32,000 nt of DNA from Sphingobacterium thalpophilum (lineage in GTDB: Bacteria; Bacteroidota; Bacteroidia; Sphingobacteriales; Sphingobacteriaceae), in assembly GCA_943372195.1 (NCBI GenBank), contig CALRXS010000005.1, positions 114,569 through 146,568 of the forward strand, in the 5' to 3' direction. The position numbers were made by a program, and so were the translations under genes. The notes under the pieces were generated by a model. That model was not told the DNA's origin, ran no database searches, and saw only the letters and a program-made list of their open reading frames with translations. This document shows positions 4,836 to 32,000 of the stretch, one piece after another (within the stretch, counting starts at the first letter, position 1; each line of letters starts with the position of its first letter).

Positions 4836-7800
4836 TATTTAAAAGTTTATACTCAGTTATATTTTGTATGTATGAAAGTTTTAATTCATAATACAAATTG
4901 TAACTATCGGTTAATTGACTGATATATTGTGACCATTCAATATGTTTTAAATTGCCAGCATTTAATTGTTTGTTTGCCGCTTTCATAGCTTGAATTAATT
5001 CAGGTATTAATGAGTTCTGATAATTTACGCATTGAATATTTTTAGCTTTTATTAATTCAATTAATTCTGACTTTTTAATTTTTAGTTTTTCTGATTCTAA
5101 CTCTTGAATATATTTGCTCTGTTCCCATTCAAGTTTTGCCATTTTGTTTTTCGCATTTTGTGCTCCAAAAAATAATGGTACACTTAGTCCAGCACTGATA
5201 AATTGAAATCTATCTGAATTTACAGCAGGTCTGCCATAATCTAATATGCCATTCAAACTTTGATTAGTATAGCCAATTTTAACATCAGGATATACTTTTG
5301 ATCGCTCAGTTTCCCATGAAAGTCTATTGATAGTTTCTATTTGTTTTAGCTTTTTCTCGAATACACCCTCAGTATTATTGATAGTTTCAGAACTTATAAT
5401 TTCAATAGAATAAGTAGGCATAAATTCATTGCTCTTGCTTCCTAATAGTAAGTTATAATACAATAATTGCTGTTTCAATTCAATTTTTTGTATTTCAATT
5501 TCTCTTGATATCTTATTTAAATTGAAGTTAACATTAGATTTTTCTAGAATACTCAATTGACCTAATTCATATTGTTTATTTACATTTATTTCTGTTTGTA
5601 TTACTTCTGATTGTAGTTGCTCTAAGAAATTTATTTTTTCTTTAATGGTATTTATTAAATAGAATTGATAATGTAATTCAGACAATAATTGGGCTTTATT
5701 TATTTCAGCATTTAAAATATTTAAATCTTTATTTGCTTTAAATAATTCATTATTATTTAGATAATAAGTAGGGAAGTGGAAAGTCTGAAATAATGAATAT
5801 GACTTATCTTTTTCAGAACTATTGTATTGGCCTTGTTGATAAGTAAATTCTGTTTTCGGAATTTCATATCCACCAGCTCTAACTTTTTTAATTTCAGACT
5901 TATAATCATCTATCGATTTAAAATAAGAATTATTAGAACTAATCTTCGATTTTGTATCATCCCAATTTAAACTTACTTGTGCATTTGCTGTGAAGGTAAA
6001 TAATGTTAAAATAACAACCATAACAGAAACTTTGCTTTTAACTTTCAACTTGCTAAAACTTGCATATAATACAGGTAGCACAAATAAAGTTAATATAGTT
6101 GCTGATAATAAACCTCCAATTACTACTGTTGCTAATGGTCTTTGAACTTCAGCTCCAGCACCACCACTTAATGCCATTGGTATAAATCCTAATGAGGCTA
6201 CAGATGCAGTCATTAATACTGGGCGAAGTCTGATTTTAGTTCCTTGAATTACTATTCTTCTTGGGTCTTTTATTCCTTCATCTTTTAGCCTATTAAATTC
6301 TGCGATCAATACAATACCATTCAAAACTGCAACTCCAAATAATGCAATAAACCCTATACCTGCTGAAATACTAAAAGGCATATCTCTTATATATAATGCA
6401 AATACTCCTCCTATAGCTGATAATGGAATCGCAGAAAAAATCAATACACCCTGCGAGATAGATCCAAATGCGAAGTATAACATAATCAATATTAATAAAA
6501 GTGAAATAGGTACAGCAATTGATAATCTATTTTTCGCTGCTATTAAATTTTCGAATGCACCTCCATAATTCACAAAATATCCAGGAGGCAAATCTACTTT
6601 AGTATCTACTTTTTTCTGAAGTTCTACAACTATACTTTGAACATCTCGGCCTCTTACGTTAAAGCCAACAATGATTCTTCGTTTTGCATCTTCTCTTTGA
6701 ATTTGGTTAGGGCCATCAATAATAGAGATATTTGCAACTAGCCTAAGTGGTATTGCATTACCATTACTTGTAGGAATTAATAATTCATCTAAGTTATGTT
6801 CATTAGACTTGAATTTTTTATCCATTCGTAATACTAAATCAAATCTTTTCTCACCTTCATATATCTTGCCAGCAATAGCACCTGCATATGCAGTTTGCAT
6901 TACTTTATTTACATCGTCTACACGTACACCATACTGTGCCATTGCTGCTCTATTATATTCTACTACAATTTGAGGCATGCCACCAATTGGTTCAACATAT
7001 AAATCTTTAGCACCTTCAACCGTTTGAATTATTTTACCTAATTCAGTTGCGTACTTCTGTAAGGTATCTAAATCTTCTCCGAAAATTTTACAAACTACAT
7101 CTTGTCTTGCACCAGTCATCAATTCATTGAATCTCATTTGAACTGGGTACTGAAATCCGAATGTTACACCAGGCACATTTGAAAGTTTTGCACTCATCTT
7201 TTCTGCTAACTCATCATAACTTTCTGCGCTGGTCCATTCTTTTTTGTCTTTCAAAATTACCATCATGTCGCTAGCCTCAATAGGCATAGGGTCTGTAGGT
7301 ATTTCTCCACTTCCAATTTTTGTAACTACTTTTTCAACTTCAGGGAAACTGTCTATTAAAATTTTTGCTGTTCTTTGTGTTGACTCAATAGTTGTTTTTA
7401 AATTACTGCCGGTTAAAATTCTCGTATCAACGGCGAAGTCACCTTCTTCTAATTCAGGTATAAATTCACCACCCATATTTAATAATACAGTAACTGATAA
7501 AACGAATGCTATAAAAACTGTTGCTAATGTTACCTTCGGATGTTGCAATATTTTTTCTAACCACGATTGATATTTTCTCTCTATAGCAAACATTGCTTTG
7601 TCAGAAATATTTGGCTCGTGTTTAATTTTTTTACTGATGAATAATGAACTCATCATTGGCACATACGTTAACGATAATATAAACGCACCTAACAAAGCAA
7701 AGGCTACAGTTGCAGCCATTGGTGCAAACATTTTTCCTTCTATACCTTGTAAAGTAAATATTGGCAAATAAACTATCAGAATTATTATTTGTCCGAATAC

Positions 7801-9156
7801 CGCTGAATTCATCATTTTACTTGCCGATGATTTGACTTGCGTATTCATCTCTTCTTGATTCAATCGCGCTACATTTGTAAAGCTTTTTGAGTGGCTGAGT
7901 TGATGCATAATTGCTTCGACGATAATTACCGCACCATCCACAATCAATCCGAAATCTATAGCCCCTAAGCTCATTAAATTACCACTTACTCCGAACATGT
8001 TCATCATGATTATAGCGAACAACATTGATAGTGGAATTACAGATGCTACGATAAGCCCTGCTCTCAAATTACCTAAGAATAATACCAATACAAAGATTAC
8101 AATTAAGGCTCCTTCTAGTAAATTTTTCTCAACTGTACCTATAGCATTACCAACCATTTTACTTCTGTCGAGAAATGCTTCAATTTCTACGCCTTCAGGT
8201 AATGTTTTTTGTATGCTTTCGATTTTTGATTTTACATCTTCTATTACTTCAGATGAGTTAGCACCTTTAAGCATCATTACAATTGCGCCTGCTACTTCGC
8301 CATCTGCATTATAGCACATAGCTCCATATCGAATCGCTTCTGCTTCTTTGACCTCTGCTACATCACTAATGGTTAGTGGTGTTGAGCTGGCATTACTTTT
8401 AATTACAATGTTTCTGATGTCATCAAAGTTTTTTAACAATCCTTCTGAGCGTATGTATAAAATACCTTCAGCTTTTTCAATGTAAGCACCACCGGTATTT
8501 GCATTATTTTCTGCCAGGGCATCATATATTTCTGAGAGAGTAACTCCATAGGACTGTAGTCTATTCGGATTAATACTCACTTCATATTGCTTCAAAGATC
8601 CGCCGAAACTAGAAACATCTGCCACGCCTTTAACTCCTAATAGTTGACGTCTAATAATCCAGTCTTGAATAGTTCTTAACTCTGTTAAACTAAAAGCATT
8701 CTCAAACCCTTTTTTGGGTTTCACTACATATTGATATATTTCTCCAAGTCCGGTCGTAACTGGTGCCAACTCTGGGTTTCCTACACCACTCGGTAATTCT
8801 GATTGAACTTTTATAAGACGCTCTGCTATTTGTTGGCGTGCCCAGTATACATCTGTTGCATCATCAAAAACGATAGTAACTAATGACAAACCGAATCGAG
8901 AGAAACTTCTAATTTCTTTTATGCCGGGTATATTGCTATTTGCTTGTTCAATAGGGAAGGTAATAAGTCGTTCGACATCGGGGGCGCCTAATGCCGGGCT
9001 TACTGTAATAATTTGTACTTGATTATCGGTTATATCGGGTACAGCATCTATTGGTAGGCGGGTAACTTCTCGTATGCCCCAACCAATTAATCCTAATGTG
9101 AATAAAGCGATAATCAGTTTCTGTTTTACAGAAAAAGATATAATAGCATTTAACAT
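4825..9156 (-). CDS. CusA/CzcA-type heavy-metal RND permease fused in frame to a TolC/CzcC-like outer-membrane factor
   Basis: 1443 aa. The first ~1035 aa are typical HME-RND (PIDAVPDITDNQVQIIT, 12-TM layout, ending ...TLFVLPVLYASF). Then comes KLKVKSKVSVMVVILTLFTFTANA|Q, which looks like a signal peptide. The remaining ~385 aa have TolC-like coiled repeats. There is no stop codon between the two parts. Confidence 0.85.
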   Translation of the reverse strand: MLNAIISFSVKQKLIIALFTLGLIGWGIREVTRLPIDAVPDITDNQVQIITVSPALGAPDVERLITFPIEQANSNIPGIKEIRSFSRFGLSLVTIVFDDATDVYWARQQIAERLIKVQSELPSGVGNPELAPVTTGLGEIYQYVVKPKKGFENAFSLTELRTIQDWIIRRQLLGVKGVADVSSFGGSLKQYEVSINPNRLQSYGVTLSEIYDALAENNANTGGAYIEKAEGILYIRSEGLLKNFDDIRNIVIKSNASSTPLTISDVAEVKEAEAIRYGAMCYNADGEVAGAIVMMLKGANSSEVIEDVKSKIESIQKTLPEGVEIEAFLDRSKMVGNAIGTVEKNLLEGALIVIFVLVLFLGNLRAGLIVASVIPLSMLFAIIMMNMFGVSGNLMSLGAIDFGLIVDGAVIIVEAIMHQLSHSKSFTNVARLNQEEMNTQVKSSASKMMNSAVFGQIIILIVYLPIFTLQGIEGKMFAPMAATVAFALLGAFILSLTYVPMMSSLFISKKIKHEPNISDKAMFAIERKYQSWLEKILQHPKVTLATVFIAFVLSVTVLLNMGGEFIPELEEGDFAVDTRILTGSNLKTTIESTQRTAKILIDSFPEVEKVVTKIGSGEIPTDPMPIEASDMMVILKDKKEWTSAESYDELAEKMSAKLSNVPGVTFGFQYPVQMRFNELMTGARQDVVCKIFGEDLDTLQKYATELGKIIQTVEGAKDLYVEPIGGMPQIVVEYNRAAMAQYGVRVDDVNKVMQTAYAGAIAGKIYEGEKRFDLVLRMDKKFKSNEHNLDELLIPTSNGNAIPLRLVANISIIDGPNQIQREDAKRRIIVGFNVRGRDVQSIVVELQKKVDTKVDLPPGYFVNYGGAFENLIAAKNRLSIAVPISLLLILIMLYFAFGSISQGVLIFSAIPLSAIGGVFALYIRDMPFSISAGIGFIALFGVAVLNGIVLIAEFNRLKDEGIKDPRRIVIQGTKIRLRPVLMTASVASLGFIPMALSGGAGAEVQRPLATVVIGGLLSATILTLFVLPVLYASFSKLKVKSKVSVMVVILTLFTFTANAQVSLNWDDTKSKISSNNSYFKSIDDYKSEIKKVRAGGYEIPKTEFTYQQGQYNSSEKDKSYSLFQTFHFPTYYLNNNELFKANKDLNILNAEINKAQLLSELHYQFYLINTIKEKINFLEQLQSEVIQTEINVNKQYELGQLSILEKSNVNFNLNKISREIEIQKIELKQQLLYYNLLLGSKSNEFMPTYSIEIISSETINNTEGVFEKKLKQIETINRLSWETERSKVYPDVKIGYTNQSLNGILDYGRPAVNSDRFQFISAGLSVPLFFGAQNAKNKMAKLEWEQSKYIQELESEKLKIKKSELIELIKAKNIQCVNYQNSLIPELIQAMKAANKQLNAGNLKHIEWSQYISQLTDSYNLYYELKLSYIQNITEYKLLNNEL

Positions 9157-16489: not shown

Positions 16490-16894
16490 ATGGGAGCATC
16501 AGATTCAGAGAAAATACGCATTGATAAATATTTATGGGCTATAAGGGTATATAAAACAAGGAGCATCGCAACAGATGCATGTAAGGCAGGTAAAGTCAAA
16601 TTAGAACAAAATAGTATTAAGCCTTCACAAAATGTGAAAATTGGAGATATCTACCATATTCAAAAATCACAAAGAAAAATTATTGTGAAAGTACTAGCAC
16701 TTCTTGAAAAAAGATTAGACGCCAAATCTGCTGCCCAATATTATGAAGATTTAAGTCCGATCGATGACACTCCTCGTCTTCATTCTGTTTTCACCGTGCC
16801 TGTTTTTCAAAGGGATAGAGGTACAGGTAGACCTACCAAGAAAGAACGAAGAGAAATTGATGATGTTCAAAGCAGTTGGGAAGATGAAGATTAA
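16490..16894 (+). CDS. RNA-binding S4 domain protein (Hsp15/HslR-like)
   Basis: IRIDKYLWAIRVYKTRSIATDACKAGKVKLEQNSIKPS is an S4-domain signature. 134 aa with a basic/acidic tail. Confidence 0.8.
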   Translation: MGASDSEKIRIDKYLWAIRVYKTRSIATDACKAGKVKLEQNSIKPSQNVKIGDIYHIQKSQRKIIVKVLALLEKRLDAKSAAQYYEDLSPIDDTPRLHSVFTVPVFQRDRGTGRPTKKERREIDDVQSSWEDED

Positions 16895-17520
16895 ATAATA
16901 CCATGAGCAAAGGCATATCTTAGCAATCCGCTTATATTATTTACACCAACCTTATCCATAATATTTGCACGATGTTTTTCAACGGTTCTAGTTGAAATTT
17001 CAAGATCTACTGCAATTTCAGGTGAAGACTTTCCTTTAGAAATAAGATTAATTATCTCAACTTCTCTCTCTGTTAATTTTAATTCTGAAAATTCTGCTTC
17101 AAATTTTTCTTTAACTTTTTCTACAATTTTTATATCAGCGCTAAAGTATTTCTCTCCATTTAACACTAGATGAATAGCTTTTAGTAATTCATCTTTTTTT
17201 GCTGATTTAAGTAAATATCCAACTGCACCTGCTTTTATCATTTTATTTAAATGCAAAATATCATCGTGCATAGTAATGGCAATTATTCTTGTCTTCGGAT
17301 GTAAACTCGTAATGATTTTCGTTGCTTCTTCACCATCCATCTGAGGCATGCTAACATCCATCAAAATTAAATCAACACGGCTTTCATTACAAATGGAAAT
17401 AGCTTCTATACCGTTATTTGCATAACCAATTATTTTAAGGTTTTCTTCAGAATCTAATGCAGACTTTATGCCATCAATCATTAATTGATGATCATCTGCT
17501 ATTAATATATTCGTATGCAT
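16891..17520 (-). CDS. Response regulator, NarL/LuxR (GerE HTH) family
   Basis: Receiver residues DD (IADDHQ), the phospho-acceptor D in LILMDVSMPQMDG, T in IIAITMH and K in GYLLKS. C-terminal HTH: LTEREVEIINLISKGKSSPEIAVDLEISTRTVEKHRANIMDKVGV. Confidence 0.92.
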   Translation of the reverse strand: MHTNILIADDHQLMIDGIKSALDSEENLKIIGYANNGIEAISICNESRVDLILMDVSMPQMDGEEATKIITSLHPKTRIIAITMHDDILHLNKMIKAGAVGYLLKSAKKDELLKAIHLVLNGEKYFSADIKIVEKVKEKFEAEFSELKLTEREVEIINLISKGKSSPEIAVDLEISTRTVEKHRANIMDKVGVNNISGLLRYAFAHGII

Positions 17521-17588
17521 AGGGTAGAATTATTTGCTTTCAAATTAAGAATAATATTTATATTTAGGCAAACTAAAATTTATATAAT

Positions 17589-17897
17589 ATGCCAAATAAT
17601 GATATTACCCTAGCACAAGCAGCAGCTCTTGTAGATGAATTCAAAAGTCTAAACATCAGTTCTCAATTTTCTACTTTTATACCTAAAGATCAAATTGAAG
17701 AGTTATTAAGTCAGCCGAATTCAATCGGAATAAATATTTATAATGGATATGTAGATGGTAAAATACATTTAGTATTTGTAAGTGCTCAGACATCAACAGA
17801 AGCCGGGTATACTTTACAAGATGATTTATCTTTAATAAAAAATACTTTCAATGGCGACCCTGAAATTTCTATTGTACCGAATGATATAAATTCATGA
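17589..17897 (+). CDS. Hypothetical small soluble protein
   Basis: 102 aa with no recognisable motif. It is coupled to the next gene by an ATGA overlap at 17894-17897. Confidence 0.5.
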   Translation: MPNNDITLAQAAALVDEFKSLNISSQFSTFIPKDQIEELLSQPNSIGINIYNGYVDGKIHLVFVSAQTSTEAGYTLQDDLSLIKNTFNGDPEISIVPNDINS

Positions 17898-18559
17898 CAA
17901 TAACTCAGAAATTTATCGTTAAGTTTTTGTTTATGATGACTACCATTCAAATTGGTATGACATTTTTTGTAGCATTACTAACTTATAAGTCACATACAAA
18001 AGTTCAACGATTTAATTTATTTTATATTTCAATAATGTTATTCTGGACATACTTTAGTATGTATGTAGGGAAGATCACTGGGAGTAACCATTTTTTAGAA
18101 AGGTTTTATGTATTAATACATGTTACATTAGGTTTGAATTTGGTTTTGCTAGAAGCTAAATCAGAAAAATTTAAAAAATATTCATATTACACATTTATAC
18201 CTTTCTTAGTAATTTGGTTAATATATATTGCAAGCAATGAGTTAGTTAAAACCTCTCCAGTTCTCGGCGGAATATCATATGCATACGTTAGTATTTTAAT
18301 GTTGTATTTATTATATGATAAAATTTCTAATCATACAGGGTCATTATTTAATGACCCTGGTATGTACATTACAGTAGGTACTTATATTTTTTATGCAGGT
18401 ACTGCTGTTGTATTTATTTTACTACAACATTATATGGTTTTTTGGCAGTATTTCCCAAATGCTAGATTTTATAAGCCTGTATTACATGCGGCTTGTAATT
18501 TTATTTTTTATAGTTTATTCATTTATTCCTTTCTATGCAATCGATCGATAAGCAACTAG
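17894..18559 (+). CDS. Polytopic (~7 TM) membrane protein, probable sensor/accessory module of the adjacent kinase
   Basis: 221 aa with about seven hydrophobic segments and short loops. It overlaps the kinase gene by 25 nt in a different frame. Confidence 0.6.
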   Translation: MTITQKFIVKFLFMMTTIQIGMTFFVALLTYKSHTKVQRFNLFYISIMLFWTYFSMYVGKITGSNHFLERFYVLIHVTLGLNLVLLEAKSEKFKKYSYYTFIPFLVIWLIYIASNELVKTSPVLGGISYAYVSILMLYLLYDKISNHTGSLFNDPGMYITVGTYIFYAGTAVVFILLQHYMVFWQYFPNARFYKPVLHAACNFIFYSLFIYSFLCNRSISN

Positions 18560-19281
18560 TAATTGGTGTTGTTGTAACTTTAATAGTTATTCTTTCACTG
18601 CTCGTTTTTATTATTGCAACAGTTGTTTTATATCAACGAAAACTTAGAGAGAAGCAACAGGCTTTATTTCAGTCTGTGATTGATGCAGAAGAAAAAGAAC
18701 GAAATAGAATTGCAAAAGATTTGCACGATAGTTTAGGTGCTTCAATGTCAGCTATCAAATTATATTTTGAAAGTTTGATGCCCAATATTGATGATAAAGA
18801 AAAATCGATTTTGGTTTATAATATGCTTGATGATGCATGTAATGAAGTACGTTCGATTTCACATCAAATGATGCCCCAAATTTTAATAAGAGAGGGTTTG
18901 TTCGTAGCTACTCGTCAATTTTGTTCTGCTTTTATGAACTTGTCTAAATTAAAGTTTGAGCTAAATATTTTAGGTCCAGAAATCAGACCTAATAACCCCA
19001 CTACAGAGCTTATGATTTATAGAGTTTTACAAGAATTAATAAATAATTCATTGAAACATTCTAAAGCCACTGAAATTATTGTTCAATTAATTCAATCCAA
19101 AAATGAGTTGATATTAAGTGTCGAAGATAATGGTATAGGAGGTGATATTAAAATTAATGATATTAGTAATGGGTTGGGAATCAATAATTTAATATCAAGG
19201 GTGAAGTACCTAAACGGACAAATAACCTTTGAAAATGTAGAAAATTCTGGATTAACGGCATTAGTTAGAATTCCTTTTTAA
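18535..19281 (+). CDS. Sensor histidine kinase, HisKA_3 (NarX/DesK/LiaS-like) class, single TM, no extracytoplasmic domain
   Basis: One TM (LVIGVVVTLIVILSLLVFIIATVVLY), H-box RIAKDLHDSLGASMSAIK, N-box LQELINNSLKHSKAT, and G-boxes VEDNGIGG / NGLGINNLISRV. Confidence 0.9.
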   Translation: MQSIDKQLVIGVVVTLIVILSLLVFIIATVVLYQRKLREKQQALFQSVIDAEEKERNRIAKDLHDSLGASMSAIKLYFESLMPNIDDKEKSILVYNMLDDACNEVRSISHQMMPQILIREGLFVATRQFCSAFMNLSKLKFELNILGPEIRPNNPTTELMIYRVLQELINNSLKHSKATEIIVQLIQSKNELILSVEDNGIGGDIKINDISNGLGINNLISRVKYLNGQITFENVENSGLTALVRIPF

Positions 19282-19379: not shown

Positions 19380-21206
19380 ATGCGTAAAGATTACCGATTT
19401 AGTGTAATAAGTTTATACTTATGTGCATTGTTGACTTTTGTATTCATACAAAATTCATCAGCACAACCTTTTTCTTATCAGCCTAACTTCAACCAAAATC
19501 CGAAGACCTTAAACTCGGCAAATAGTTATGAAGTTATCGTAAAACAAGAATTAGCGAAATTCTTTAGTCCAGGCACCTTTGTCGTTGACATTAACATATT
19601 ACAAGGAAGCATTGAGGTCATCAAACCTAGCAATAGGCCTAACATCAAGAAAAAAATGGGTCGTTTGCCTGGTATGCCAGTTCTTCCCAAAAGTATCGAA
19701 GAAACAACACCTACAGATACTAATTCAAATTATATTTTCAGTATAGAAGAAGTTGATTATTTAGATGTATCTGTTTTAGTTGATACCACTTTCAATGATA
19801 CTGATTTAGATTTCATAAAGTCGCTAGTTCGTTCAGTAATTCCAATTGATGAAACAAAGGGTGATATTGTAAAAGTTAAAAGAGCAGTATTTCCAAAAGC
19901 ACAAGAAAGTAATCAAGCTATTACAGCTCCAGTACCTGTTCAAACTAAACCTGAACCCAATCAATATCCGAATTATAACACAGCACCCACTGAAAATAAA
20001 AGTACAGATACAGAAAAGCCAGAACAGAATATTTTATTGTACGCGCTATTATTTATCTTACTCATTTGTTTAGTCATTATTGTATTTGTTGTATTCTTAC
20101 TATACAGAAGAAGTAAACAAAATAATAACTCTAATAACAATGATGTACAAAAAGAAGAAAAGAAGTCAAATAAAGAAGATGAATTAAGTATAGTATACCC
20201 TCGCGAAGAATTAAAATCAAGTCCGCAAACCGAAGACATCATCAACTACGAATTTAATAGACAACATGTTATTACTAGTGTTATCTCAAACCCGAAAGAC
20301 GTAGCTGCTATGTTAGAAGCATGGATGTTAACAAACCCTGAGGAAGGAAAACTACGAGCTGCTAATGCATTAAATGCTGTAAATCCGAAATTACTTAATT
20401 TTATTAAACCACATTTATCTGATAAAGTTTATACTGAATTGTCACAAGCAATTAACAACGGACAGTTAAATTCTTATACAGATAAATATCAAGAGGCAAG
20501 AGATTTCAGTAAAGAGTTATTATCAATAAATACCGAACACGAAAAAAATGAAGATCTCTTTGAGTTTCTAAATCAAATTACAGATGCTCAAGTAATACAT
20601 ATGTTGAAAGATGAAGATGATAATCTGTCTTCTATTTTATTAGCACAACTAAGCTCTAAGCGCTCAAAGAATATTTTGGGAATGATGGATATCAATAGAA
20701 GGTCCTCGATAATCATGAAAATGAGTAAGATTGATTTGATATCTTCTTCTATTTATAGAGAAGTTGCTGGTTATTTCTCAAAGAAAGCAGTAGAGGTAAA
20801 GGGAATGCAAAATGTAGCATTCGACGGTCTTCAAACTATACTAGATATTTTAGATCAAATGCAAGACGAAGATCAAGATCAATTAATTGGTTCTATTGCA
20901 TCTCAAGATTTAGAGTTGGCAAATAACATCAAACAACAATTTGTTGGCTTTAAAAATCTAGTTTATTTAACAGATGTTCAATTAGAAGCAGCATTGAGAG
21001 ATATAGATACAGATACAATAGTTGCAGCATTAACCGGATCTACAGCTGCAATACAAAATAAAGTAATTGCACAAAGAGCAGTCCGTGAGCAAACATTAAT
21101 TAGATCTGAATTAGATGGTTCAAATACTATAAGTCCTGAATTACGCGACGCCTCTAAAAAGAAAATTATTGATTCAATAAGAAAAGTTTTAAAAACGATT
21201 GCCTAA
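19380..21206 (+). CDS. Membrane protein with FliF-like topology and a FliG-like (M and C domain) cytoplasmic region
   Basis: 608 aa. N-terminal signal/TM (aa 9-28), exported region aa 29-217 and a second TM at aa 218-242 (nt 20031-20105). The cytoplasmic part has a FliG_M-like stretch (aa ~395-470) and a FliG_C-like stretch (aa ~505-608: LTDVQLEAALRDIDTDTIVAALTGSTAAIQNKVIAQRAVREQTLIRSELDG...). This is a by-eye comparison to remembered FliG consensus. Confidence 0.6.
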   Translation: MRKDYRFSVISLYLCALLTFVFIQNSSAQPFSYQPNFNQNPKTLNSANSYEVIVKQELAKFFSPGTFVVDINILQGSIEVIKPSNRPNIKKKMGRLPGMPVLPKSIEETTPTDTNSNYIFSIEEVDYLDVSVLVDTTFNDTDLDFIKSLVRSVIPIDETKGDIVKVKRAVFPKAQESNQAITAPVPVQTKPEPNQYPNYNTAPTENKSTDTEKPEQNILLYALLFILLICLVIIVFVVFLLYRRSKQNNNSNNNDVQKEEKKSNKEDELSIVYPREELKSSPQTEDIINYEFNRQHVITSVISNPKDVAAMLEAWMLTNPEEGKLRAANALNAVNPKLLNFIKPHLSDKVYTELSQAINNGQLNSYTDKYQEARDFSKELLSINTEHEKNEDLFEFLNQITDAQVIHMLKDEDDNLSSILLAQLSSKRSKNILGMMDINRRSSIIMKMSKIDLISSSIYREVAGYFSKKAVEVKGMQNVAFDGLQTILDILDQMQDEDQDQLIGSIASQDLELANNIKQQFVGFKNLVYLTDVQLEAALRDIDTDTIVAALTGSTAAIQNKVIAQRAVREQTLIRSELDGSNTISPELRDASKKKIIDSIRKVLKTIA

Positions 21207-22270
21207 TGAGAGTTAAGTTATTCATATTATTTTTATTTATTTCATCGCATAGCTTCTCTCAATCAGTTAGAAGCAATCCGCAAGTTAGAAAACAAACGGA
21301 GCTTACAAGGTTGATGGAAGAAGTGGTTGATGTATTAAAAGTGCCTGATTTATTATATAGAAGAGTATCTATTGTATCTTTTGACTATCCTGATTTTATT
21401 TTAAGTGAGAGTGAAGCATCACAGATAAGAAGTAGAATAGAGGGAGCTTTTGCTAAATCTGGATTTGTTATAGTTTCAGCACCTGAGTTCAAGCAAAAAG
21501 CCTTAACAATAGTTTCAGGTACAGATTCAAATCTAAAAATATCTCGACAAAATTCTTTAGAGAGATTATTGAATAATGAAAAAGCATTTTCTGATGTTAT
21601 AGATAAGTATGCAATTCAAGGTGTAATATATGCTCAACTTACATACGATTATGTGACGGGTTATCAGCTGAATCTACAATTATTAAAATCTAATTCTAAA
21701 GAGCTTTTGTATTCTACAATTGTATATTCTGATCCGAAATTATACGTATCTAGAAGTATGCAAACACAAATTACAGCTGGTTATATAATCAATAATACCA
21801 AAAATTATTTAATCAATAATATGCCTTTTATAGGTGGAAGTTTTGCAGGTTTTGCAGAATTAGGGGTGCATTTACGACAACCTTTTACTCCTACTAGAAC
21901 TGGATATTACGGAATAACAGGCGGACTATCATTATTGAATTTAATACAAAGTGGTAATGATACTTCTTTTAGAAATTTTAATAAAATTATACCTACAGTA
22001 GGATTTCAATATTCATTATGTTTTTTCAAGAAAAATGATTTGCCTCGTGAATATTGGATGGAAGCTTTTCAGTCAGTTAACTTATTAATTGCAGATGAAT
22101 GGTTACCAGTAGTTAGACAAGGAATAACAGTAAATGCAACTAAAAACATGAGCGTTCAAATAGATTTAAGATATTATCTAATAAGCTCTAATTTGACTAA
22201 CGGCAACAATTTGTTGCAATTAAATAATTTTGGATATGGACTTAACATTATATACAGGCCGAAGATATAG
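21206..22270 (+). CDS. Exported protein: periplasmic alpha/beta N-domain plus C-terminal beta-barrel-like domain (putative outer-membrane component)
   Basis: Signal peptide MRVKLFILFLFISSHSFS|QS. The N-domain pattern (VSIVSFDYPD...SQIRSRIEGAFAKSGFVIVS...IQGVIYAQLTYDYVTGYQLNLQLL) is reminiscent of FlgO/LpoB/CsgG-type modules. The C-terminal ~170 aa show alternating hydrophobic strands (GYYGITGGLSLLNL, VGFQYSLCFF, MSVQIDLRYYLIS, GYGLNIIYRP). The ATG overlaps the upstream stop (TAATG). Confidence 0.55.
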   Translation: MRVKLFILFLFISSHSFSQSVRSNPQVRKQTELTRLMEEVVDVLKVPDLLYRRVSIVSFDYPDFILSESEASQIRSRIEGAFAKSGFVIVSAPEFKQKALTIVSGTDSNLKISRQNSLERLLNNEKAFSDVIDKYAIQGVIYAQLTYDYVTGYQLNLQLLKSNSKELLYSTIVYSDPKLYVSRSMQTQITAGYIINNTKNYLINNMPFIGGSFAGFAELGVHLRQPFTPTRTGYYGITGGLSLLNLIQSGNDTSFRNFNKIIPTVGFQYSLCFFKKNDLPREYWMEAFQSVNLLIADEWLPVVRQGITVNATKNMSVQIDLRYYLISSNLTNGNNLLQLNNFGYGLNIIYRPKI

Positions 22271-22799
22271 TATAATTGTTTTTGCTTTGATTTTTTTTAG
22301 TTCTTGCCAAACGCAGATGACTCCTCAAGAGTTAGTTGAGCAGCAGAGAATTTCAGAAATGCAAAGAAGAACAGTTAATGCTAAAGATCCTGTAAACATT
22401 AAATACAAAAATAATTCATCGAGCATTGAATATGCTGTTGGTAAAGGAAATGAAGAGTTTATACTTGATATGAACACTGATCCTAAATTTAAAAAAGATG
22501 TTATTGATGGGGTATTAAATATATCGAGAGAAGCACAAATAGCAGTTAATGAAGCAGTGAAAGATATTCGCAAAGCGCAAGAATTTTTATACATCGATGA
22601 TTATAATACCGCACTAGAATACGTTAATGAATCTATTAAAATTATACCAACTGCAGAAGGTTATGCTTTGAAGGGGAGTATTTTATATATGATGGGAGAT
22701 GAACCTGCTGCAAAAGAAAGTTGGTTATTAGCATTAAAAATTGATCCTGAAATTAAAATTCCGACAGCTAAAGAGTTGAAGGAAATATCTTCAAAATAA
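22230..22799 (+). CDS. TPR-repeat lipoprotein
   Basis: RRYSIIVFALIFFSSC is a lipobox. There are about two TPR units (YNTALEYVNESIKIIPTAEGYALKGSILYMMGDEPAAKESWLLALKIDPE). The ORF-track start at 22230 is TTG; an ATG lies at 22236. It overlaps the upstream gene by 35-41 nt. Confidence 0.7.
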   Translation: MDMDLTLYTGRRYSIIVFALIFFSSCQTQMTPQELVEQQRISEMQRRTVNAKDPVNIKYKNNSSSIEYAVGKGNEEFILDMNTDPKFKKDVIDGVLNISREAQIAVNEAVKDIRKAQEFLYIDDYNTALEYVNESIKIIPTAEGYALKGSILYMMGDEPAAKESWLLALKIDPEIKIPTAKELKEISSK

Positions 22800-22805
22800 T
22801 TAGAT

Positions 22806-23621
22806 ATGAAGTTCTCTATTGGTAGTTTTATTGGTTTTGCCATTTGTACAGGATTTATTATTCTTGGACTTATGGATACAAGTGGGTATATAAGATTAGA
22901 GCATTATTTGCCTAGCTTCTTAAAAAATCCATTTATACATTTTGCAGGTTTCTTCATTGTATTTGGAGGAGTATTAGGCGCGATGTTTATTATGTACCCA
23001 ACAGATGCAGTTCTAAAAGCACTAGGAAGTTTTAGACATATGTTTAATCATTCGAATACAAAAGCCTCTACTATGGCTGAAGATGTTGAAATGATTGTTT
23101 CTTGGTCAGAGAAAATCAAAAATGACAAAAAGTCTTTCATCCAAGAAATGACACAAAATAATAAAGACCCATACACAAGAGTATTATTCGATTTATATAG
23201 CACAAATTATTCTAGTCATGATATCAGAGCAATGGGTGAGGTCAATATTGAAAAAGAATTTAATCAATCTTTACAAATGTCTGATGTAATTCATGCCATG
23301 GCGAACTCTGCACCAGCATTTGGTATGGTGGGTACTGTATTAGGTATGGTAGTAATGTTAAGCAATCTTAGTGATCCTGCTAATATAGGTCCGGGTATAT
23401 CAACCGGCTTAATCGGAACTTTATACGGAGTAACTTCAGCCAATCTATTTTTCATTCCATTATCACGAAAAATAAAATTCAATGCACTTATTCAACAGCG
23501 AAGAGAAATTATCATTCTAGAAGGCTTGCTTCTAATTAAAGAAAACAAACCTGCATTAGTGATTAGAGATCAGTTGATGTCATTTGTTTCAAGAGAAAAT
23601 GAAACTAAGCCAATAAAATAA
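22806..23621 (+). CDS. MotA/PomA-type stator A subunit (MotA/TolQ/ExbB channel family)
   Basis: 271 aa in a 2 TM + ~100-aa cytoplasmic loop + 2 TM layout. The TM3-TM4 block SAPAFGMVGTVLGMVVMLSNLSDPANIGPGISTGLIGTLYGVTSANLFFIPL closely follows the MotA/PomA signature as I recall it. It includes both conserved prolines (P170 at 23313-23315, P218 at 23457-23459). Confidence 0.85.
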   Translation: MKFSIGSFIGFAICTGFIILGLMDTSGYIRLEHYLPSFLKNPFIHFAGFFIVFGGVLGAMFIMYPTDAVLKALGSFRHMFNHSNTKASTMAEDVEMIVSWSEKIKNDKKSFIQEMTQNNKDPYTRVLFDLYSTNYSSHDIRAMGEVNIEKEFNQSLQMSDVIHAMANSAPAFGMVGTVLGMVVMLSNLSDPANIGPGISTGLIGTLYGVTSANLFFIPLSRKIKFNALIQQRREIIILEGLLLIKENKPALVIRDQLMSFVSRENETKPIK

Positions 23622-24298
23622 TGAGTTTAGAATCAAATAAAAAGAAGGTACACAAAAATGCATTTGGTGAAGGTCAAGAAGAATTATGGCTCATCACTTA
23701 TGCTGATTTGATAACACTTCTATTGTGTTTTTTTATTCTTTTATTTTCTGCCTCTTCTATAGATCAAAATGTTTGGGAAACTATAAAAACCAGTTATAGC
23801 ACCAAAATGAAAAAGAAGGTAGCTAATACTCCTTTAGCTGACATAAAAAATCAACTCGATTCAATGTTAATGAAAGAAGTGAAAGATAATAAACTTGAAA
23901 TCTTAAAAGATGAGAATGGTATCAACATGAGATTTTTAAGTACTTCTTTTTATAATTCAGGAGAAGCTACATTATTACCAGAAGGGAAAGCAATTGTCGA
24001 CAAGATTTTTAATATCATCAAAAATGTAAAAGGTACAAAATTCAATATTGATGTCGAAGGACACACAGACGACAATCCGATTTCTAATATAAGCTACCCC
24101 TCAAATTGGGAACTATCAGTAGCACGTGCTTCTAATGTTGTTAGATATTTAGTAGAACGCGGTATAGAACCTCGTAGATTAAAAGCATCAGGTTATGCCG
24201 ACACTAAACCTGTCGTCGCTAATAGAGATTCATTAGGTAAGCCAATACCCGACAACCAATCAATCAATCGCCGAGTAGTCTTAAAAATCCACTACTAA
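23621..24298 (+). CDS. MotB-type stator B subunit with OmpA-like peptidoglycan-binding domain
   Basis: The single TM carries the conserved Asp in WLITYADLITLLLCFFILLF (D29, nt 23705-23707). C-terminal OmpA-like block: VEGHTDDNPI...SNWELSVARASNVVRYLVERGIEPRRLKASGYADTKP...NRRVVLKI. The ATG overlaps the motA-like stop (TAATG). Confidence 0.88.
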   Translation: MSLESNKKKVHKNAFGEGQEELWLITYADLITLLLCFFILLFSASSIDQNVWETIKTSYSTKMKKKVANTPLADIKNQLDSMLMKEVKDNKLEILKDENGINMRFLSTSFYNSGEATLLPEGKAIVDKIFNIIKNVKGTKFNIDVEGHTDDNPISNISYPSNWELSVARASNVVRYLVERGIEPRRLKASGYADTKPVVANRDSLGKPIPDNQSINRRVVLKIHY

Positions 24299-26748: not shown

Positions 26749-28299
26749 ATGAAGAAATTACTGTTTTTGTTTTGCATCATCCTTACACAAAATACATATG
26801 CTCAAAACAATAAGCCTGTATTGAGTAATTTGAATTTAACATATAATGATAGTATGTTAATTGTTACATATGATGTTTTCGATGTAGAGGATGATACGCT
26901 AGAAGTTTTTATGACGATTAAGAATGTAAAATTGAAATCATTTATAAATGCTGATAAAACAAGTGGTGATATAGGTAAGGGTATTAAATCTGGCAACAAA
27001 AAAACTATTTACTGGAGATACGATACGGTAGCATTTAATAAAGTGATTGATGTAAGAGTTTATGCTGATGATCATAAAACTAAATCAATTCAAGATATAT
27101 TAGCATTGGTCGATACGAATAGAATGAAGCGCGATATGGATAGTCTAGAGGGCACTCGACACTTTTCTGCGGCACCTCAGCGATTAGCAAAAATAAAAGA
27201 TACTATTTCAACACGATTGATAAACTATGGATCTGAGATGAGAGAACAAGTTTTTCAGTATGGTGCATATGCGGCTAAAAATATAGAAGGTTCGAAAACA
27301 GGTAGGGGACAAGAGGATAAATATTTTATTATTGATGCACATTTTGATTGTGTATCGAACGGACCAGGGGCCGATGATAATTTATCGGCAGTCGTTGCAA
27401 TGCTTGAAGCAGCGAGGGTCTTGAACGGTGTAGAATTAAATAAGAGTATAAAATTTGTTGGTTTTGATTTAGAAGAACTTGGCTTGTTAGGTAGTAAAGA
27501 GTATGTCAAAAATTTCATGCCAAAAGACCAACAATTAAAGGGCGTGTATAATTTTGAGATGATCGGATATTATTCAACCAGAAATAATTCTCAAACCTTA
27601 CCAACGGGTTTCAATTTAATATTTCCTGAAGCATATAATCAAGTAGCACAAGATACCTTCAAAGGAAATTTCATTACCAATGTGGGTAATATTACTTCCT
27701 CCATTTTCGTAAATGAATTCAAGAGTGCAGCTGCAGCTTATGTGCCCAATTTAAAAGTTGTCTCTGTCAAAGTACCAGATAATGGAATGTTAGCACCAGA
27801 TCTAAGAAGGAGCGATCATGCACCCTTTTGGGATGCCGGATATAGTGCGATTATGTTAACTGATGGCGCAAATTTTAGAAATAAAAATTATCATACAGCA
27901 AAAGATGTTTCAGACTCCTTGAACTTTCAATTCATGTCAAACGTACTAAAAGCGACAATAGCAAGTGTTCTTAGTTTATCAGGTTTGTCTCATGCCGGAG
28001 TTGCGAGTGAAGAAATTGAGATTTTAAATGCAGTAGGGTTCAATCAGATTGAGCAGTTTAATGAAATACGTATTCAACCTAATCCTGCTTCAAATCAATG
28101 TTTTGTTGAATGGCCTAGTAATTTTGAGGCAAATACTATAAAAGTCTATGATTCAAAAGCCGAATTGGTTTATTCAAGTGAGATTAGCAATAAGAATTCA
28201 CATATTTTACTGACGGATGTCTACGCTAATGGTCATTATTTCGTAGAACTAATATCGTCAAAAGGGCAATTACGAAGCAGATTTGTGGTAAAACACTAA
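26749..28299 (+). CDS. M28-family aminopeptidase with N-terminal Ig-like domain and T9SS C-terminal sorting domain
   Basis: Signal peptide ...QNTYA|QN. M28 metal-ligand context (IIDAHFDCVSNGPGADDNLSAVVAMLEAAR, FVGFDLEELGLLGS, YNFEMIGY, SDHAPFW). The last ~75 aa (IRIQPNPASNQCFVEW...GHYFVELISSKGQLRSRFVVKH) look like a T9SS CTD. Confidence 0.85.
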   Translation: MKKLLFLFCIILTQNTYAQNNKPVLSNLNLTYNDSMLIVTYDVFDVEDDTLEVFMTIKNVKLKSFINADKTSGDIGKGIKSGNKKTIYWRYDTVAFNKVIDVRVYADDHKTKSIQDILALVDTNRMKRDMDSLEGTRHFSAAPQRLAKIKDTISTRLINYGSEMREQVFQYGAYAAKNIEGSKTGRGQEDKYFIIDAHFDCVSNGPGADDNLSAVVAMLEAARVLNGVELNKSIKFVGFDLEELGLLGSKEYVKNFMPKDQQLKGVYNFEMIGYYSTRNNSQTLPTGFNLIFPEAYNQVAQDTFKGNFITNVGNITSSIFVNEFKSAAAAYVPNLKVVSVKVPDNGMLAPDLRRSDHAPFWDAGYSAIMLTDGANFRNKNYHTAKDVSDSLNFQFMSNVLKATIASVLSLSGLSHAGVASEEIEILNAVGFNQIEQFNEIRIQPNPASNQCFVEWPSNFEANTIKVYDSKAELVYSSEISNKNSHILLTDVYANGHYFVELISSKGQLRSRFVVKH

Positions 28300-29593: not shown

Positions 29594-30457
29594 TTAATTT
29601 TTAATTATTTTTTTACTTAAAAACTCATTATTTATATTCATCAGTCTTAGCAAATACACTCCACTTTTTAATTCATCAATGTTTATTTTTTTTTCTTTAA
29701 TTTTTCCAGTTACGACTAATTCACCTATTGAATTATAAATAAAATATTCAAGTAAATTTATCTGATTCGTTTTAATATTTAATAAATCATTCACAGGATT
29801 AGGATATACTATTAATTCATCGGACCTTAATGTATTAATGTCAGTTGAAAATTTTTCTAAAATACCAATCCCCCAAGAGCCAGGTATAAACCGACTTGCT
29901 GATATCGGCCAATGGTTAAAAGCATTGAAAGTATTACTAACTAAGAAACTTATTCCGATTGTATCATTTCTACTTAAATCTATACCGACTGTTCTAAACG
30001 GAATTTTTATTTCTACTAAATCAGTTAATGGTAAACCTTGTAATATATTATTGGCCTGCCATGTTACTTTTGATGCAGCACAGCTAGCATAGTTACCATA
30101 AGCACCTTTGTATTCACAATCAGTTGTTGATACATGAAACCACCAATCGTCTGATAAAAAATCTAATGATCGATCAAAATTAATATCCAGTAACACTTCC
30201 GGAAAACGAACATTTGCCGATTCTAAATTGCCCTTATAACACAATAATAAATTTTCACCATCATGCTTGAAATATATTTTTACTTTTTTAGTACTTAAAA
30301 AGTTTATCTCCACAGAGTCTGAACCGCTCCATTCATCTACGCTCATTTGACCATCAACCCATATTGTATCAGCTAATGGAATTAATATTTGATCTTGAGC
30401 CTTAGCTCGAGTATTTATTTGTATACAGATCAAAATTATCAGTAATATTTTTTTCAT
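29594..30457 (-). CDS. Secreted protein with CBM9/DOMON-like N-domain and T9SS C-terminal sorting domain
   Basis: Signal peptide ...NTRAKA|QD. IWVDGQMSVDEWSGSDSVEI...IYFKHDGENLLLCY resembles CBM9-like modules. The CTD is LIVYPNPVNDLLNIKT...GVYLLRLMNINNEFLSKKIIKN. Confidence 0.65.
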   Translation of the reverse strand: MKKILLIILICIQINTRAKAQDQILIPLADTIWVDGQMSVDEWSGSDSVEINFLSTKKVKIYFKHDGENLLLCYKGNLESANVRFPEVLLDINFDRSLDFLSDDWWFHVSTTDCEYKGAYGNYASCAASKVTWQANNILQGLPLTDLVEIKIPFRTVGIDLSRNDTIGISFLVSNTFNAFNHWPISASRFIPGSWGIGILEKFSTDINTLRSDELIVYPNPVNDLLNIKTNQINLLEYFIYNSIGELVVTGKIKEKKINIDELKSGVYLLRLMNINNEFLSKKIIKN

Positions 30458-30460
30458 AAA

Positions 30461-32000
30461 TTATTTTTTTATAAAATGAATGATTTGGTTATTAATTTTT
30501 AAAATATACATGCCTTTATGTAATGATTCAATATTAATACTAGCATTCATAATTTCAGCTGCTAATATCCTTTTACCTTGCATATCATAGATCTCATATT
30601 TATGGTCATCTAATTTTTCTGTTTCTTGAATATGAATTTTATTTTCAGCAGGATTAGGGAATATTTTCAAAGGAGTTTTTGTTTCTCCTCTTGAATTGCT
30701 TAATCCTAGTCCTTTGGTAACAATTAGATACTGATTTGCACTTATATTGCTATATACTTCTATAATACCAGTTGGCCATTCAATTATTAAGCTATCAATA
30801 ATAGTAGCAGTAGCCGTGCCGAAATGCATATCCATCATGTTCTGTCCATTATGCCCCGATACTGATGTGATTTCACGCATTTGCCATATAGATTGCCCGT
30901 TGATACTTGTCTTTATTCTTGCTATGCTTCCAATAGCTGACCTGTTATTACCTGAAACATCCTTACAAACTATTACTAACCAATTATTCGAATTTCCTAA
31001 GTTTTTATAAAGTGAGTTATTTTGATTCTTATTATAACAATTCGCTACAGCTAAATCTAAGAATCCATCTTTATCTACATCGCCAAATGCACAACCATAT
31101 GACCAAGTAGAATCTGTCTTGAATGTATTTAATGTATCTAATGAAAAGGTACCATTGTTGTTGAGATATAATTTATTGACGGCTTTCGTAGGACTGAAAG
31201 ATTGAGTGATAAATAAATCTAAATCAGCATCGTTATCAACATCGGCCCAAGAGCTCCCAAAAGTATATTCAAAACTATCAGTTGGGAAATTTTGTTCAAT
31301 GAAATTTAAATTTCCATCGTTTTTAAATAGTTGATTCGCTGAGCCATCATTACCTAAGAATACATCTAAATCTCCATCGTTATCGTAGTCAGCCCAACTT
31401 GCAGTGATTGTATTTCTGCCTTGTTTTACTAATGCAGTACTCAGATTTCTACTGAAGGTGCCATCATTATTATTGATATATAGATTTTCATTTTCGTTAT
31501 TTTCATTGCAAACAAATAGGTCTAAGTCATGATCTGCATCTATGTCAACCCAGTGAATACTTCTAGAACTATTAGCATCACTTATTGCTGGACCTGTAAT
31601 GATTTTCGTAAAAGTTGAATCACCATTACCTCTGTATAAATTATTCTTGTAGTTACCAAATGAATTACTCAGGTATGCATCTAGTTTCCCATCTTTATCG
31701 TAATCTCCCCATGCTATACATTCTGAGTAAGTAATATCAGTTGCAATGGCACCAGTTCTAATTTTTTTGAATTGTAAATTTCCTTCGTTGATGTATAATG
31801 CATTTTTCTTCCCATACCAAGTCACTACCATTAAATCAAGATCGCCATCATTATCAATATCGGCCCAACTTGCTCCATCGTATTGACTTTTATCTCTCAA
31901 TAAAACAGAATTGGTATCTAATTTCTCGAAGACAAAGTTACCTTTATTGATATAAAGAAAATTTCTCTCTCCAACACTTAATCCATTCGAAATAAATAAA
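30461..32000 (-). CDS. FG-GAP/VCBS-repeat protein with ASPIC/UnbV-like domain and T9SS CTD (CRTAC1-like); 5' end outside window
   Basis: Repeated WADIDNDGDLDL / WGDYDKDGKLD / WVDIDADHDLDL / WADYDNDGDLDV / WADVDNDADLDL / FGDVDKDGFLDL calcium-binding FG-GAP motifs. UnbV-like block GSIARIKT...REITSVSGHNGQNMMDMHFG...IIEWPTG. CTD: LKIFPNPAENKIHIQ...GMYILKINNQIIHFIKK. The frame stays open from 31900 to 32000 (…FLYINKGNFVFEKLDTNSVL), so the gene continues upstream of the window. Confidence 0.8.
   Translation of the reverse strand, partial: LFISNGLSVGERNFLYINKGNFVFEKLDTNSVLLRDKSQYDGASWADIDNDGDLDLMVVTWYGKKNALYINEGNLQFKKIRTGAIATDITYSECIAWGDYDKDGKLDAYLSNSFGNYKNNLYRGNGDSTFTKIITGPAISDANSSRSIHWVDIDADHDLDLFVCNENNENENLYINNNDGTFSRNLSTALVKQGRNTITASWADYDNDGDLDVFLGNDGSANQLFKNDGNLNFIEQNFPTDSFEYTFGSSWADVDNDADLDLFITQSFSPTKAVNKLYLNNNGTFSLDTLNTFKTDSTWSYGCAFGDVDKDGFLDLAVANCYNKNQNNSLYKNLGNSNNWLVIVCKDVSGNNRSAIGSIARIKTSINGQSIWQMREITSVSGHNGQNMMDMHFGTATATIIDSLIIEWPTGIIEVYSNISANQYLIVTKGLGLSNSRGETKTPLKIFPNPAENKIHIQETEKLDDHKYEIYDMQGKRILAAEIMNASINIESLHKGMYILKINNQIIHFIKK

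Follow-up and report, generated by a model that had tools for sequence, protein, structure and literature searches.

We analysed a 32,000-nucleotide stretch of contig CALRXS010000005.1 (the window), filed under Sphingobacterium thalpophilum, in which five genes (19380-24298) form a compact operon, in which the stop of one gene overlaps the start of the next or is 7 nt away from it. The first gene encodes a single polypeptide joining a FliF-like exported domain to a FliG-like cytoplasmic region, and is followed by genes for an exported 354-aa protein, a lipoprotein with tetratricopeptide repeats (TPR), and the stator proteins MotA and MotB. A preliminary description of this DNA, made from its letters alone, had drawn attention to the first gene. 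The positions of all features are collected in Table 1.

The fusion protein and its family

The open reading frame (ORF) of the fusion was present exactly as the preliminary description had given it, and the topology drawn there (two hydrophobic segments, an exported part of about 190 aa between them, a linker rich in N, K and E, and a helical region) agreed with both hydropathy and an AlphaFold model. The model used was built on a 134-sequence alignment, with a mean predicted local distance difference test (pLDDT) score of 82.8, and replaced one from a shallow 19-sequence alignment that was unusable (pLDDT 51). The N-terminal hydrophobic segment showed its Kyte-Doolittle peak at aa 5-23 and was modelled as a helix at aa 5-26. 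The transmembrane (TM) helix reached a Kyte-Doolittle value of 3.81 (19-residue window) at aa 223-241, with a model helix at aa 218-247 (pLDDT 86-93). The linker was variable in length and sequence in alignments and fell below a pLDDT of 50 at aa 250-279, and aa 282-607, about 325 aa, were all helical in the model.

By Foldseek comparison of the model with the PDB, the best tier of matches consisted of full-length FliG structures (3hjl, 2e-9 over 314 columns, and also 8wiw, 9n49 and 8umx), with alignments of 304-323 columns. The C-terminal domain superposed on 1qc7 with a TM-score of 0.84 and a root-mean-square deviation (rmsd) of 1.9, and on 8ucs_H, the FliG chain of a MotAB-FliG complex, with a TM-score of 0.80 and an rmsd of 1.7. 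In agreement with this, Pfam FliG_C matched aa 505-603 at 6.5e-15 over profile positions 2-100 of 108 (55.8 bits, cutoff 23.3), and FliG_M matched aa 403-473 at 2.2e-7 (31.4 bits, cutoff 25). Moreover, a profile of close relatives aligned to Thermotoga maritima FliG_MC (1lkv) over 209 residues without a gap (2.7e-16). The two FliG domains, as well as the gapless FliG_C alignment made earlier by eye, were thus recovered, both domains above their gathering cutoffs; profile search and structure prediction alike assigned the C-terminal region to FliG and to no unrelated helical-repeat family.

The helical region was larger in its FliG content than had been recognized, since aa 283-395, left unassigned in the preliminary description, correspond to a FliF C-terminal-like helix followed by FliG_N. 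A sub-profile of aa 283-400 matched T. maritima FliG_N (5tdy_B, 1.2e-4) and an engineered Vibrio FliF-FliG fusion (8z4d_1, 3e-3), in which the FliF C-helix (577-595) and FliG_N (620-681) were matched collinearly. The Vibrio FliF stretch 577-595, VANEPELAAQVVKNWMNDM, aligned to NPKDVAAMLEAWML at profile positions 19-37, although on its own it scored a weak 3.5 bits. In the model, the segment packs on FliG_N with a pLDDT of 96-98. Pfam FliG_N itself gave a match on the fusion that was located on the M region, just under the cutoff.

The exported domain had the order alpha-beta-beta-alpha-beta in the model (H41-59, E67-82, E118-134, H140-153, E163-168), with a poorly ordered loop flanked by two long strands; as modelled, this is the order of a ring-building motif (RBM). 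The second Foldseek tier comprised about 20 FliF RBM3/collar or S-ring chains (8z5v_A at 9e-4, 6sd1_A at 1.1e-3, 7d84_A, 8zdt_A, 8z4d_1 and others), all with a probability of 1.00 and a TM-score to the target of 0.43-0.47, and matched over nearly the whole target. A third tier was weaker (PrgK 0.04, EscJ 0.25). The end of the Pfam YscJ_FliF_C profile matched aa 114-171 at 1.7e-4, its 22.5 bits lying slightly below the cutoff of 23.8. The claim of a FliF-like exported domain ahead of a TM helix was therefore upheld by two approaches. The collar is much shorter than that of FliF, and RBM1 and RBM2, the region homologous to SctJ, were not found: the exported part holds a single folded domain (aa 41-172) and has no match to the N-terminal Pfam YscJ_FliF family.

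The N-terminal segment had been likened to the first membrane anchor of FliF. Its hydrophobicity stood, but it is probably not an anchor. An [AGS]-Q junction follows it in the family, with Q in 106 of 134 members and A, G or S at position -1 in 113 of 134. This junction is the 'Q-rule' signature of signal peptidase I in Bacteroidetes (PMC5837995), and it is found again ahead of the mature part of the 354-aa protein and in the homologues of that protein. Since the junction is conserved, we infer that the segment is cleaved and that the mature fusion is single-pass; it is probably a signal peptide rather than a FliF-type TM1. The prevalence of the Q-rule also suggests that most of the fusion family comes from Bacteroidota.

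Altogether, the profile and Foldseek assignments indicate that the gene is a fliF-fliG fusion lacking RBM1 and RBM2, in which a probable signal peptide and an RBM3/collar-like domain are followed by the TM helix and the linker, then by a FliF C-terminal-like helix, and last by the N, M and C domains of FliG. By fold and profile the protein belongs to the FliG and FliF superfamilies. It is an orthologue of neither, because the equivalog score failed (78.6 bits against a cutoff of 226.7 for the NCBIfam FliG model TIGR00207), the EHPQR motif is absent, and RBM1 and RBM2 are missing.

When 1.84 billion representative proteins were searched exhaustively with a profile, 98 matches were obtained at E<=1e-30 and 392 at E<=1e-10. 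Among the best 150, about 130 were 560-760 aa long with a TM segment at residue ~200-300, so that the full-length architecture is common to at least ~130 clusters at 50% identity. We found at least 26 close relatives (62-96% identity) of the same length and architecture. In 67 diverse members, Pfam detected FliG_C in 67, FliG_M in 64, FliG_N in 48 and YscJ_FliF_C in 20 (E<=0.01, best 7.2e-8). Two short matches of ~330 aa (P0060 and P0101) were considered as unfused FliG proteins and left unused, since each looks like a full-length member whose gene call was cut short or started internally. An MgtE_N identity was likewise rejected, the cross-matches being weak (best 3.9e-8, against 2.6e-26 for FliG_C).

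Residue conservation was counted in the 134-sequence family alignment. On the periplasmic side, an LPGLP motif is kept in the strand-connecting loop (P97 in 132 members, G98 in 130), as is the FliF-type RGD motif ahead of the TM helix (G161 in 127, D162 in 133). The FliF C-terminal-like helix retains P305 (101/134) and W315 (103/134), and the start of FliG_N retains G323 (104/134) and A328. Both hinges are recognizable, as DG at the GG position of FliG and as an F-(I/V)-T-F version of MFXF. In the torque helix, a P567-x-R569 element is conserved (P567 in 110 members; R or K at 569 in 129). R569 aligns to the arginine of SKRAA in T. maritima FliG, which we take to be the equivalent of E. coli R281 by the established correspondence. 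The preliminary description had put forward R566, R569, R574 and E576 as candidate charged residues, with R566 in the lead. The last two numbers were off by one (R575 and E577), and the R281 equivalent is R569 instead of R566; only R569 proved conserved throughout, R566 being an arginine in 52 of 134 members, R575 not being conserved, and E577, which aligns to E. coli D289, being E or D in about half (69/134). Finally, the expected loss of the FliM-binding motif was seen in the 1lkv alignment, in which SEHPQ is replaced by (D/E)EDDN and R160 by K447. Of the motif, the family conserves E412 (107/134); positions 413-415, which cover HPQ, and K447 are variable. As had been noted for this stretch, there is no FliM or FliN; neither was found in the window or at any related locus.

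Operon partners, distribution and genomic setting

The 354-aa protein matched nothing in Pfam, NCBIfam, PADLOC, or PDB searches with a single sequence or a profile. A gene of about 352-371 aa nevertheless occupies the same position in every complete module examined, and its family shares PEF and (S)TD(S) motifs in an N-terminal alpha/beta domain, W284, and a Y-G...F C-terminal end. The protein has no TM helix and beta periodicity dominates its C-terminal half; its sequence makes a periplasmic N-terminal alpha/beta domain joined to an outer-membrane beta-barrel probable. The TPR gene likewise has a counterpart of 166-325 aa at the same position in related modules. Its TTG start overlaps the end of the preceding gene by 41 nt (22230-22270), and the apparent starts of homologues give 187-201 aa; with starts so variable, the start codon of the lipoprotein is uncertain.

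The operon ends in a stator pair of flagellar type, MotA and MotB, with plug, channel aspartate and peptidoglycan anchor; as the preliminary description had claimed, the pair is encoded downstream of the fusion. MotA aligned over its full length (aa 7-263) to Clostridium sporogenes MotA of the MotAB-FliG complex (8ucs_C, 2.4e-26) and also matched PomA and other MotA structures. Its channel prolines P170 and P218 align to P173 and P222 of E. coli. The insertion specific to E. coli is absent from this MotA, which makes it TGI4-like in the terminology of PMC12505986. MotB carries the Pfam MotB_plug (5.4e-17) and the peptidoglycan-binding OmpA domain (5.5e-18), and its TM aspartate is conserved (D29 in LITYADL). 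NCBIfam flagellar motor models matched MotA at up to 7e-38, and MotD, MotS and MotB models matched MotB at up to 1e-47, all under their cutoffs, which for MotA are equivalog cutoffs. Scans for consensus promoters and terminators stayed at background level, the promoters not being of the sigma-70 type.

We found the same five-gene order in at least 12 unrelated genomic contexts, flanked by unrelated housekeeping genes. The module is carried by close relatives (loci L002, L004-L008, L010 and L017-L019) and by distant ones (L013/L014, L016, L022, L023, L024, and two metagenome-assembled genomes, MAGs, labelled Fibrobacterales for L020 and Elusimicrobiota for L021); MAGs labelled Sphingobacteriales are also among the carriers. 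The distant members are 24-28% identical to the window in the fusion, 27-46% in MotA and 36-48% in MotB, and the gene order is held down to about 22-28% identity. Look-ups of thirty clusters of the family identified no cultured carrier; the three further clusters for which they gave an organism name were all MAGs. The ratio of nonsynonymous to synonymous substitution rates (dN/dS) was calculated by the Nei-Gojobori method in two pairwise comparisons. Between the window and L010 it was 0.044 for the fusion, 0.076 for the 354-aa protein, 0.033 for the TPR lipoprotein, 0.084 for MotA and 0.058 for MotB; between L005 and L007 the values were 0.031, 0.047, 0.030, 0.030 and 0.044 in the same order. 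Such low ratios in all five genes indicate functioning genes and not relics. These results show that distantly related uncultured bacteria preserve the five genes as a unit and under strong purifying selection.

Some side observations concern the carriers. Between the window and the 99%-identical L010 (4823-9747), dS was uneven along the operon (fusion 0.17, 354-aa gene 0.38, TPR gene 0.14, MotA 0.79, MotB 0.39), which suggests within-operon recombination between strains, centred on motA. In L015 (1-6683), a Pseudomonadota-labelled MAG, the fusion has 724 aa and ends in a long tail of low complexity. A TPR gene lies before it, and after it come genes for a 212-aa OMP_b-brl-like protein and a 945-aa TPR protein; the 212-aa protein stands in the position of the 354-aa gene, and its match to OMP_b-brl is weak (1.6e-3). 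Some of the record titles of L001 and L005-L007 read 'Rhizobium sp.' or 'Sphingobacterium thalpophilum', whereas in gene content and synteny the records agree with freshwater MAGs labelled Sphingobacteriales; their organism labels look unreliable.

Table 1. Features of the module and of its surroundings in the window
Feature	Position	Strand	Remarks
FliF(RBM3)-FliG fusion gene	19380..21206	+	ATG start, 608 aa; first gene of the module
Probable N-terminal signal peptide, aa 1-28	19380..19463	+	hydrophobic stretch; putative cleavage between SSA and Q
RBM3-like periplasmic domain and short collar, aa 41-172	19500..19895	+	model, Foldseek, Pfam
TM helix, aa 218-247	20031..20120	+	hydropathy, model helix
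Low-complexity cytoplasmic linker, aa 248-282	20121..20225	+	low pLDDT
FliF C-terminal-like helix (~aa 300-318, NPKDVAAMLEAWML), then FliG_N (~aa 320-395)	20226..20564	+	sub-profile, Foldseek
FliG_M, aa 403-473, without EHPQR	20586..20798	+	Pfam, 1lkv alignment
FliG_C torque domain, aa 505-603	20892..21188	+	Pfam, Foldseek
Exported 354-aa protein	21206..22270	+	start overlaps fusion stop; signal peptide with S-Q junction
TPR lipoprotein, 189 aa	22230..22799	+	lipobox-like FSSC; Pfam TPR_1/TPR_2 ~1e-5, aa 142-174
MotA/PomA flagellar-type stator, 271 aa	22806..23621	+	Pfam MotA_ExbB 2.1e-19
MotB, 225 aa	23621..24298	+	start overlaps MotA stop
LuxR-type response regulator	16891-17520	-	insertion block
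HisKA_3/HATPase histidine kinase	18535-19281		insertion block, which also holds a 102-aa ORF and a 221-aa multi-pass membrane ORF
M28 peptidase with Por_Secre_tail sorting domain	26749-28299		type IX secretion system (T9SS) cargo
287-aa protein with Por_Secre_tail sorting domain	29594-30457	-	T9SS cargo
FG-GAP/ASPIC protein with Por_Secre_tail sorting domain	30461-31900	-	T9SS cargo

The window is an ordinary Bacteroidota-type chromosome. It also encodes rpoC, a resistance-nodulation-division (RND) efflux system, and pgk and gap, which follow the module, and its three T9SS cargo genes mark the genome as that of a T9SS-bearing member of the phylum. A four-gene block (16891-19281) lies between an hsp15-like S4 gene and the fusion gene. 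It is absent from the syntenic loci L006, L017 and L019, in which the S4 gene directly precedes the fusion gene, and appears as a lineage-specific insertion; the block might regulate the module. On the reverse strand, a 1443-aa ORF (4825-9156) unites in one frame an RND pump (AcrB/ACR_tran, aa 5-1034) and an outer-membrane factor (C-terminal OEP/TolC-like domain, aa 1284-1439), and a 1447-aa ACR_tran gene is found there in L017 and L019.

Proposed mechanism and competing explanations

We think it probable, with some reserve, that the five genes encode a self-contained, stripped-down flagellar-type rotary motor working outside any flagellum. By homology, the RBM3-like domain would oligomerise the fusion into an inner-membrane ring, the cytoplasmic face of which would carry a 1:1 FliG ring, each subunit bringing its own FliG, and the contact in cis between FliF helix and FliG_N would substitute for the intermolecular FliF-FliG contact of flagella. 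Units of the MotA5B2 type, anchored to peptidoglycan, would be driven by ion flow and turn the ring by pushing against the torque helix of FliG_C; R569 would take part in the torque contact, and E577 too in the lineage of the window. As both EHPQR and FliM/FliN are missing, the motor would be switchless and probably unidirectional. Since it also lacks RBM1/RBM2 and has no export gate, rod, hook or filament, its torque would not be passed to an axial filament. It might instead leave through the periplasmic collar, with the invariant LPGLP loop as a candidate surface, and reach the co-encoded 354-aa protein, while the TPR lipoprotein is probably a periplasmic scaffold resembling MotX, PflA and PflB, the TPR/Sel1 stator scaffolds of some flagella. 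Candidates for the cellular output are movement of surface components, envelope remodelling and transport. The fuller picture, a free-standing one-way rotary nanomachine that delivers torque to an outer-membrane barrel without a secretion apparatus or filament and is widespread in uncultured Bacteroidota and neighbouring lineages, we advance tentatively, as a possibility that falls somewhat short of an even chance.

Several points weigh against a rotary motor. Three of the five classical FliG charges are lost (K264 is hydrophobic, R297 is S, P or T, and D288 is mostly S), which indicates that the electrostatic interface may differ from that of flagella, and on the stator side the conservation is loose, 7 of 10 loci having K or R at the MotA R90 site and the E98 site being variable. 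L015, a divergent member, has no adjacent MotAB, nor any within the 13 kb available. Ring formation by a lone RBM3-like domain, rotation and contacts between the partners are all read from sequence, and we infer the role of the 354-aa protein solely from its position, signal peptide and composition. Finally, the flagellar-gene negative given below holds for the window and for 10 kb on either side of the module in about 12 contexts.

A static arrangement is the first alternative to be considered. The fusion ring would stand still, with FliG_C merely recruiting or activating stators, and MotAB would act as Tol-Pal or ExbBD-TonB do, energising a process in the outer membrane or the periplasm, force passing to the 354-aa protein and the TPR lipoprotein without continuous rotation. 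The gene set does resemble Tol-Pal (an inner-membrane motor of 5:2 type, a peptidoglycan-binding OmpA domain, a TPR protein, and an exported or outer-membrane partner), the classical charge pairs between MotA and FliG are conserved only in part, and the module sits among housekeeping genes. We nevertheless hold this reading to be unlikely: MotA is of flagellar type throughout, its cytoplasmic torque-generating domain included, MotB has its plug, RBM3/collar is a ring-building element, and the fusion keeps the three FliG domains, the hinge motifs and the R281 equivalent, features known only from rotor-stator coupling. It is quite improbable, in turn, that the operon is part of a genuine flagellum whose remaining genes lie elsewhere, the fusion being the unusual MS-ring/FliG of a flagellated uncultured lineage. 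All detectable homology is indeed to flagellar motor proteins, source databases annotate relatives as 'flagellar motor switch protein FliG', and our gene scan was limited to the window and loci. Within that scope, however, no further flagellar Pfam family was detected in the 32-kb window or within 10 kb of the module in about 12 contexts with several phylum-level labels, and rotor and stator genes were always separated by two non-flagellar genes. The fusion itself lacks RBM1 and RBM2, which surround the export gate in FliF, as well as the FliM-binding motif. The T9SS cargo genes of the window are moreover typical of Bacteroidota, and the class Bacteroidia is not known to have flagella. Bacteroidota have been listed among the lineages without filament and ring proteins (PMC12199754). 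A survey of MotAB evolution, in which the module is not described, does not list them among the lineages with flagellar-type stators (PMC12505986).

The neighbourhoods of some modules could point to gliding, the ring being an accessory motor that drives or gates giant SprB-like surface adhesins of the Bacteroidota gliding/T9SS machinery. A gene for a 5839-aa Ig_7/SprB/CHU_C protein directly follows motB in L013 (15204-22019), L017 (18231-21854) has a PorP_SprF gene, a gene for a LytTR response regulator and the beginning of one for an 11416-aa protein within ~6 kb, the module of L016 is followed by a Bacteroidota-type DUF5723 gene, and the window itself encodes T9SS cargo. We judge this very improbable: such neighbours are missing from the window, in which pgk and gap follow, and from L019, L020, L021, L022, L023 and L024, and giant adhesin genes are common in these genomes, so that adjacency in 2-3 of ~12 contexts may be due to chance. 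Least credible of all, and only marginally worth entertaining, are functionless remnants of an ancestral flagellum or an anti-phage system of the Zorya kind based on MotAB. Flagellar remnants are known in non-motile lineages (PMC12199754), but here dN/dS is 0.03-0.08 in the five genes, the frames are intact and the gene order outlasts divergence to ~22-28% identity. As for Zorya, MotB matched the ZorB models of PADLOC (6.6e-21) because the MotB/OmpA architecture is shared; MotA gave no ZorA match and there was no other PADLOC match. Stable chromosomal synteny within the lineage, in place of a variable island, speaks against both.

Significance and comparison with known systems

The flagellar motor core (MS-ring, FliG and MotAB) is known only inside a machine of 25 or more proteins. 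Work on flagellar evolution has yet to settle whether 'half a motor' could be of use; one census of flagellar genes poses the question outright, noting rotor proteins in non-motile species and asking about their use, with no system described (PMC12199754). In the module presented here, five genes would preserve the torque-generating core alone, as a ring-builder, a rotor interface and a stator together with two envelope partners. Strong purifying selection maintains this operon in deeply diverged lineages of a phylum held to lack flagella. Should the module rotate, it would be the simplest natural rotor-stator system known and a new output for flagellar-type torque; having one rotor polypeptide with a fixed 1:1 FliF:FliG ratio and no switch, it would be attractive for structural and single-molecule work. 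It would also allow exaptation and ancestry of the motor core to be weighed on a concrete example, being either the flagellar core exapted to a new function in the envelope or a surviving counterpart of the rotor-stator stage that models of flagellar origin often assume. In any case, 'FliG' and 'MotA/MotB' calls in Bacteroidota MAGs need not mean flagella. We found no description of the five-gene module in the full-text literature, the coverage of which was incomplete (most subscription journals lie outside it), so that a prior description is possible. The rotor-stator module is thus apparently undescribed, whereas natural FliF-FliG fusion as such is already known from Chlamydiaceae.

Compared with a canonical flagellum, the module retains an RBM3/collar-like domain followed by a TM helix, a FliF C-terminal-like helix followed by FliG_N, the FliG_M and FliG_C folds with the R281 equivalent, a MotA of PomA/TGI4 type, and a MotB with plug, channel aspartate and OmpA domain. 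It differs in that FliF and FliG form one polypeptide, that RBM1 and RBM2 are absent and the N-terminal segment is probably cleaved, that there is no EHPQR, and that genes for FliM, FliN, export apparatus, rod, hook and filament are not found nearby. Moreover, two unrelated envelope-protein genes lie between the rotor and stator genes, and the NCBIfam equivalog cutoffs for FliG, MotA and MotB are not reached.

The GldLM system of gliding and T9SS and the Tol-Pal and ExbBD-TonB systems, all of diderm envelopes, are inner-membrane, ion-driven motors of 5:2 stoichiometry that deliver work across the periplasm to outer-membrane components, and Tol-Pal includes a TPR protein and an OmpA-like peptidoglycan binder. 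The module is similar to them by analogy, as an inner-membrane ion-driven motor with outer-membrane partners. Its stator, in contrast, is of flagellar type and not ExbB, TolQ or GldL, and it is paired with a FliG-bearing ring, which occurs in none of them.

The plausibility of a natural FliF-FliG fusion, argued in the preliminary description from engineered proteins, has one published natural precedent, of different domain content. The fusion of Chlamydiaceae (Bergeron 2016) has ~330 aa and two TM helices, an RBM2-like and a second RBM-like region, and only a FliG_M-like cytoplasmic domain; the paper links it to the injectisome and names no MotAB partner (PMC4768692). Judged by this published description, both are natural single chains of a shortened FliF and FliG in hosts regarded as non-flagellated, with FliM absent, but the protein of the window combines RBM3/collar with the N, M and C domains of FliG, torque helix included, and shares an operon with MotAB. 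Full-length FliF-FliG fusions engineered in Salmonella and Vibrio assemble rings and work in flagella (PMC6079021, PMC11481574), which indicates that a covalent 1:1 linkage is compatible with ring formation. In them a FliF C-terminal helix is followed by FliG_N (e.g. PDB 8z4d), in the order of the natural fusion and collinear with the family sub-profile. They are, however, laboratory constructs with a full-length FliF (RBM1-3) in complete flagella, whereas the fusion of the window is natural, truncated and set outside any flagellar context.

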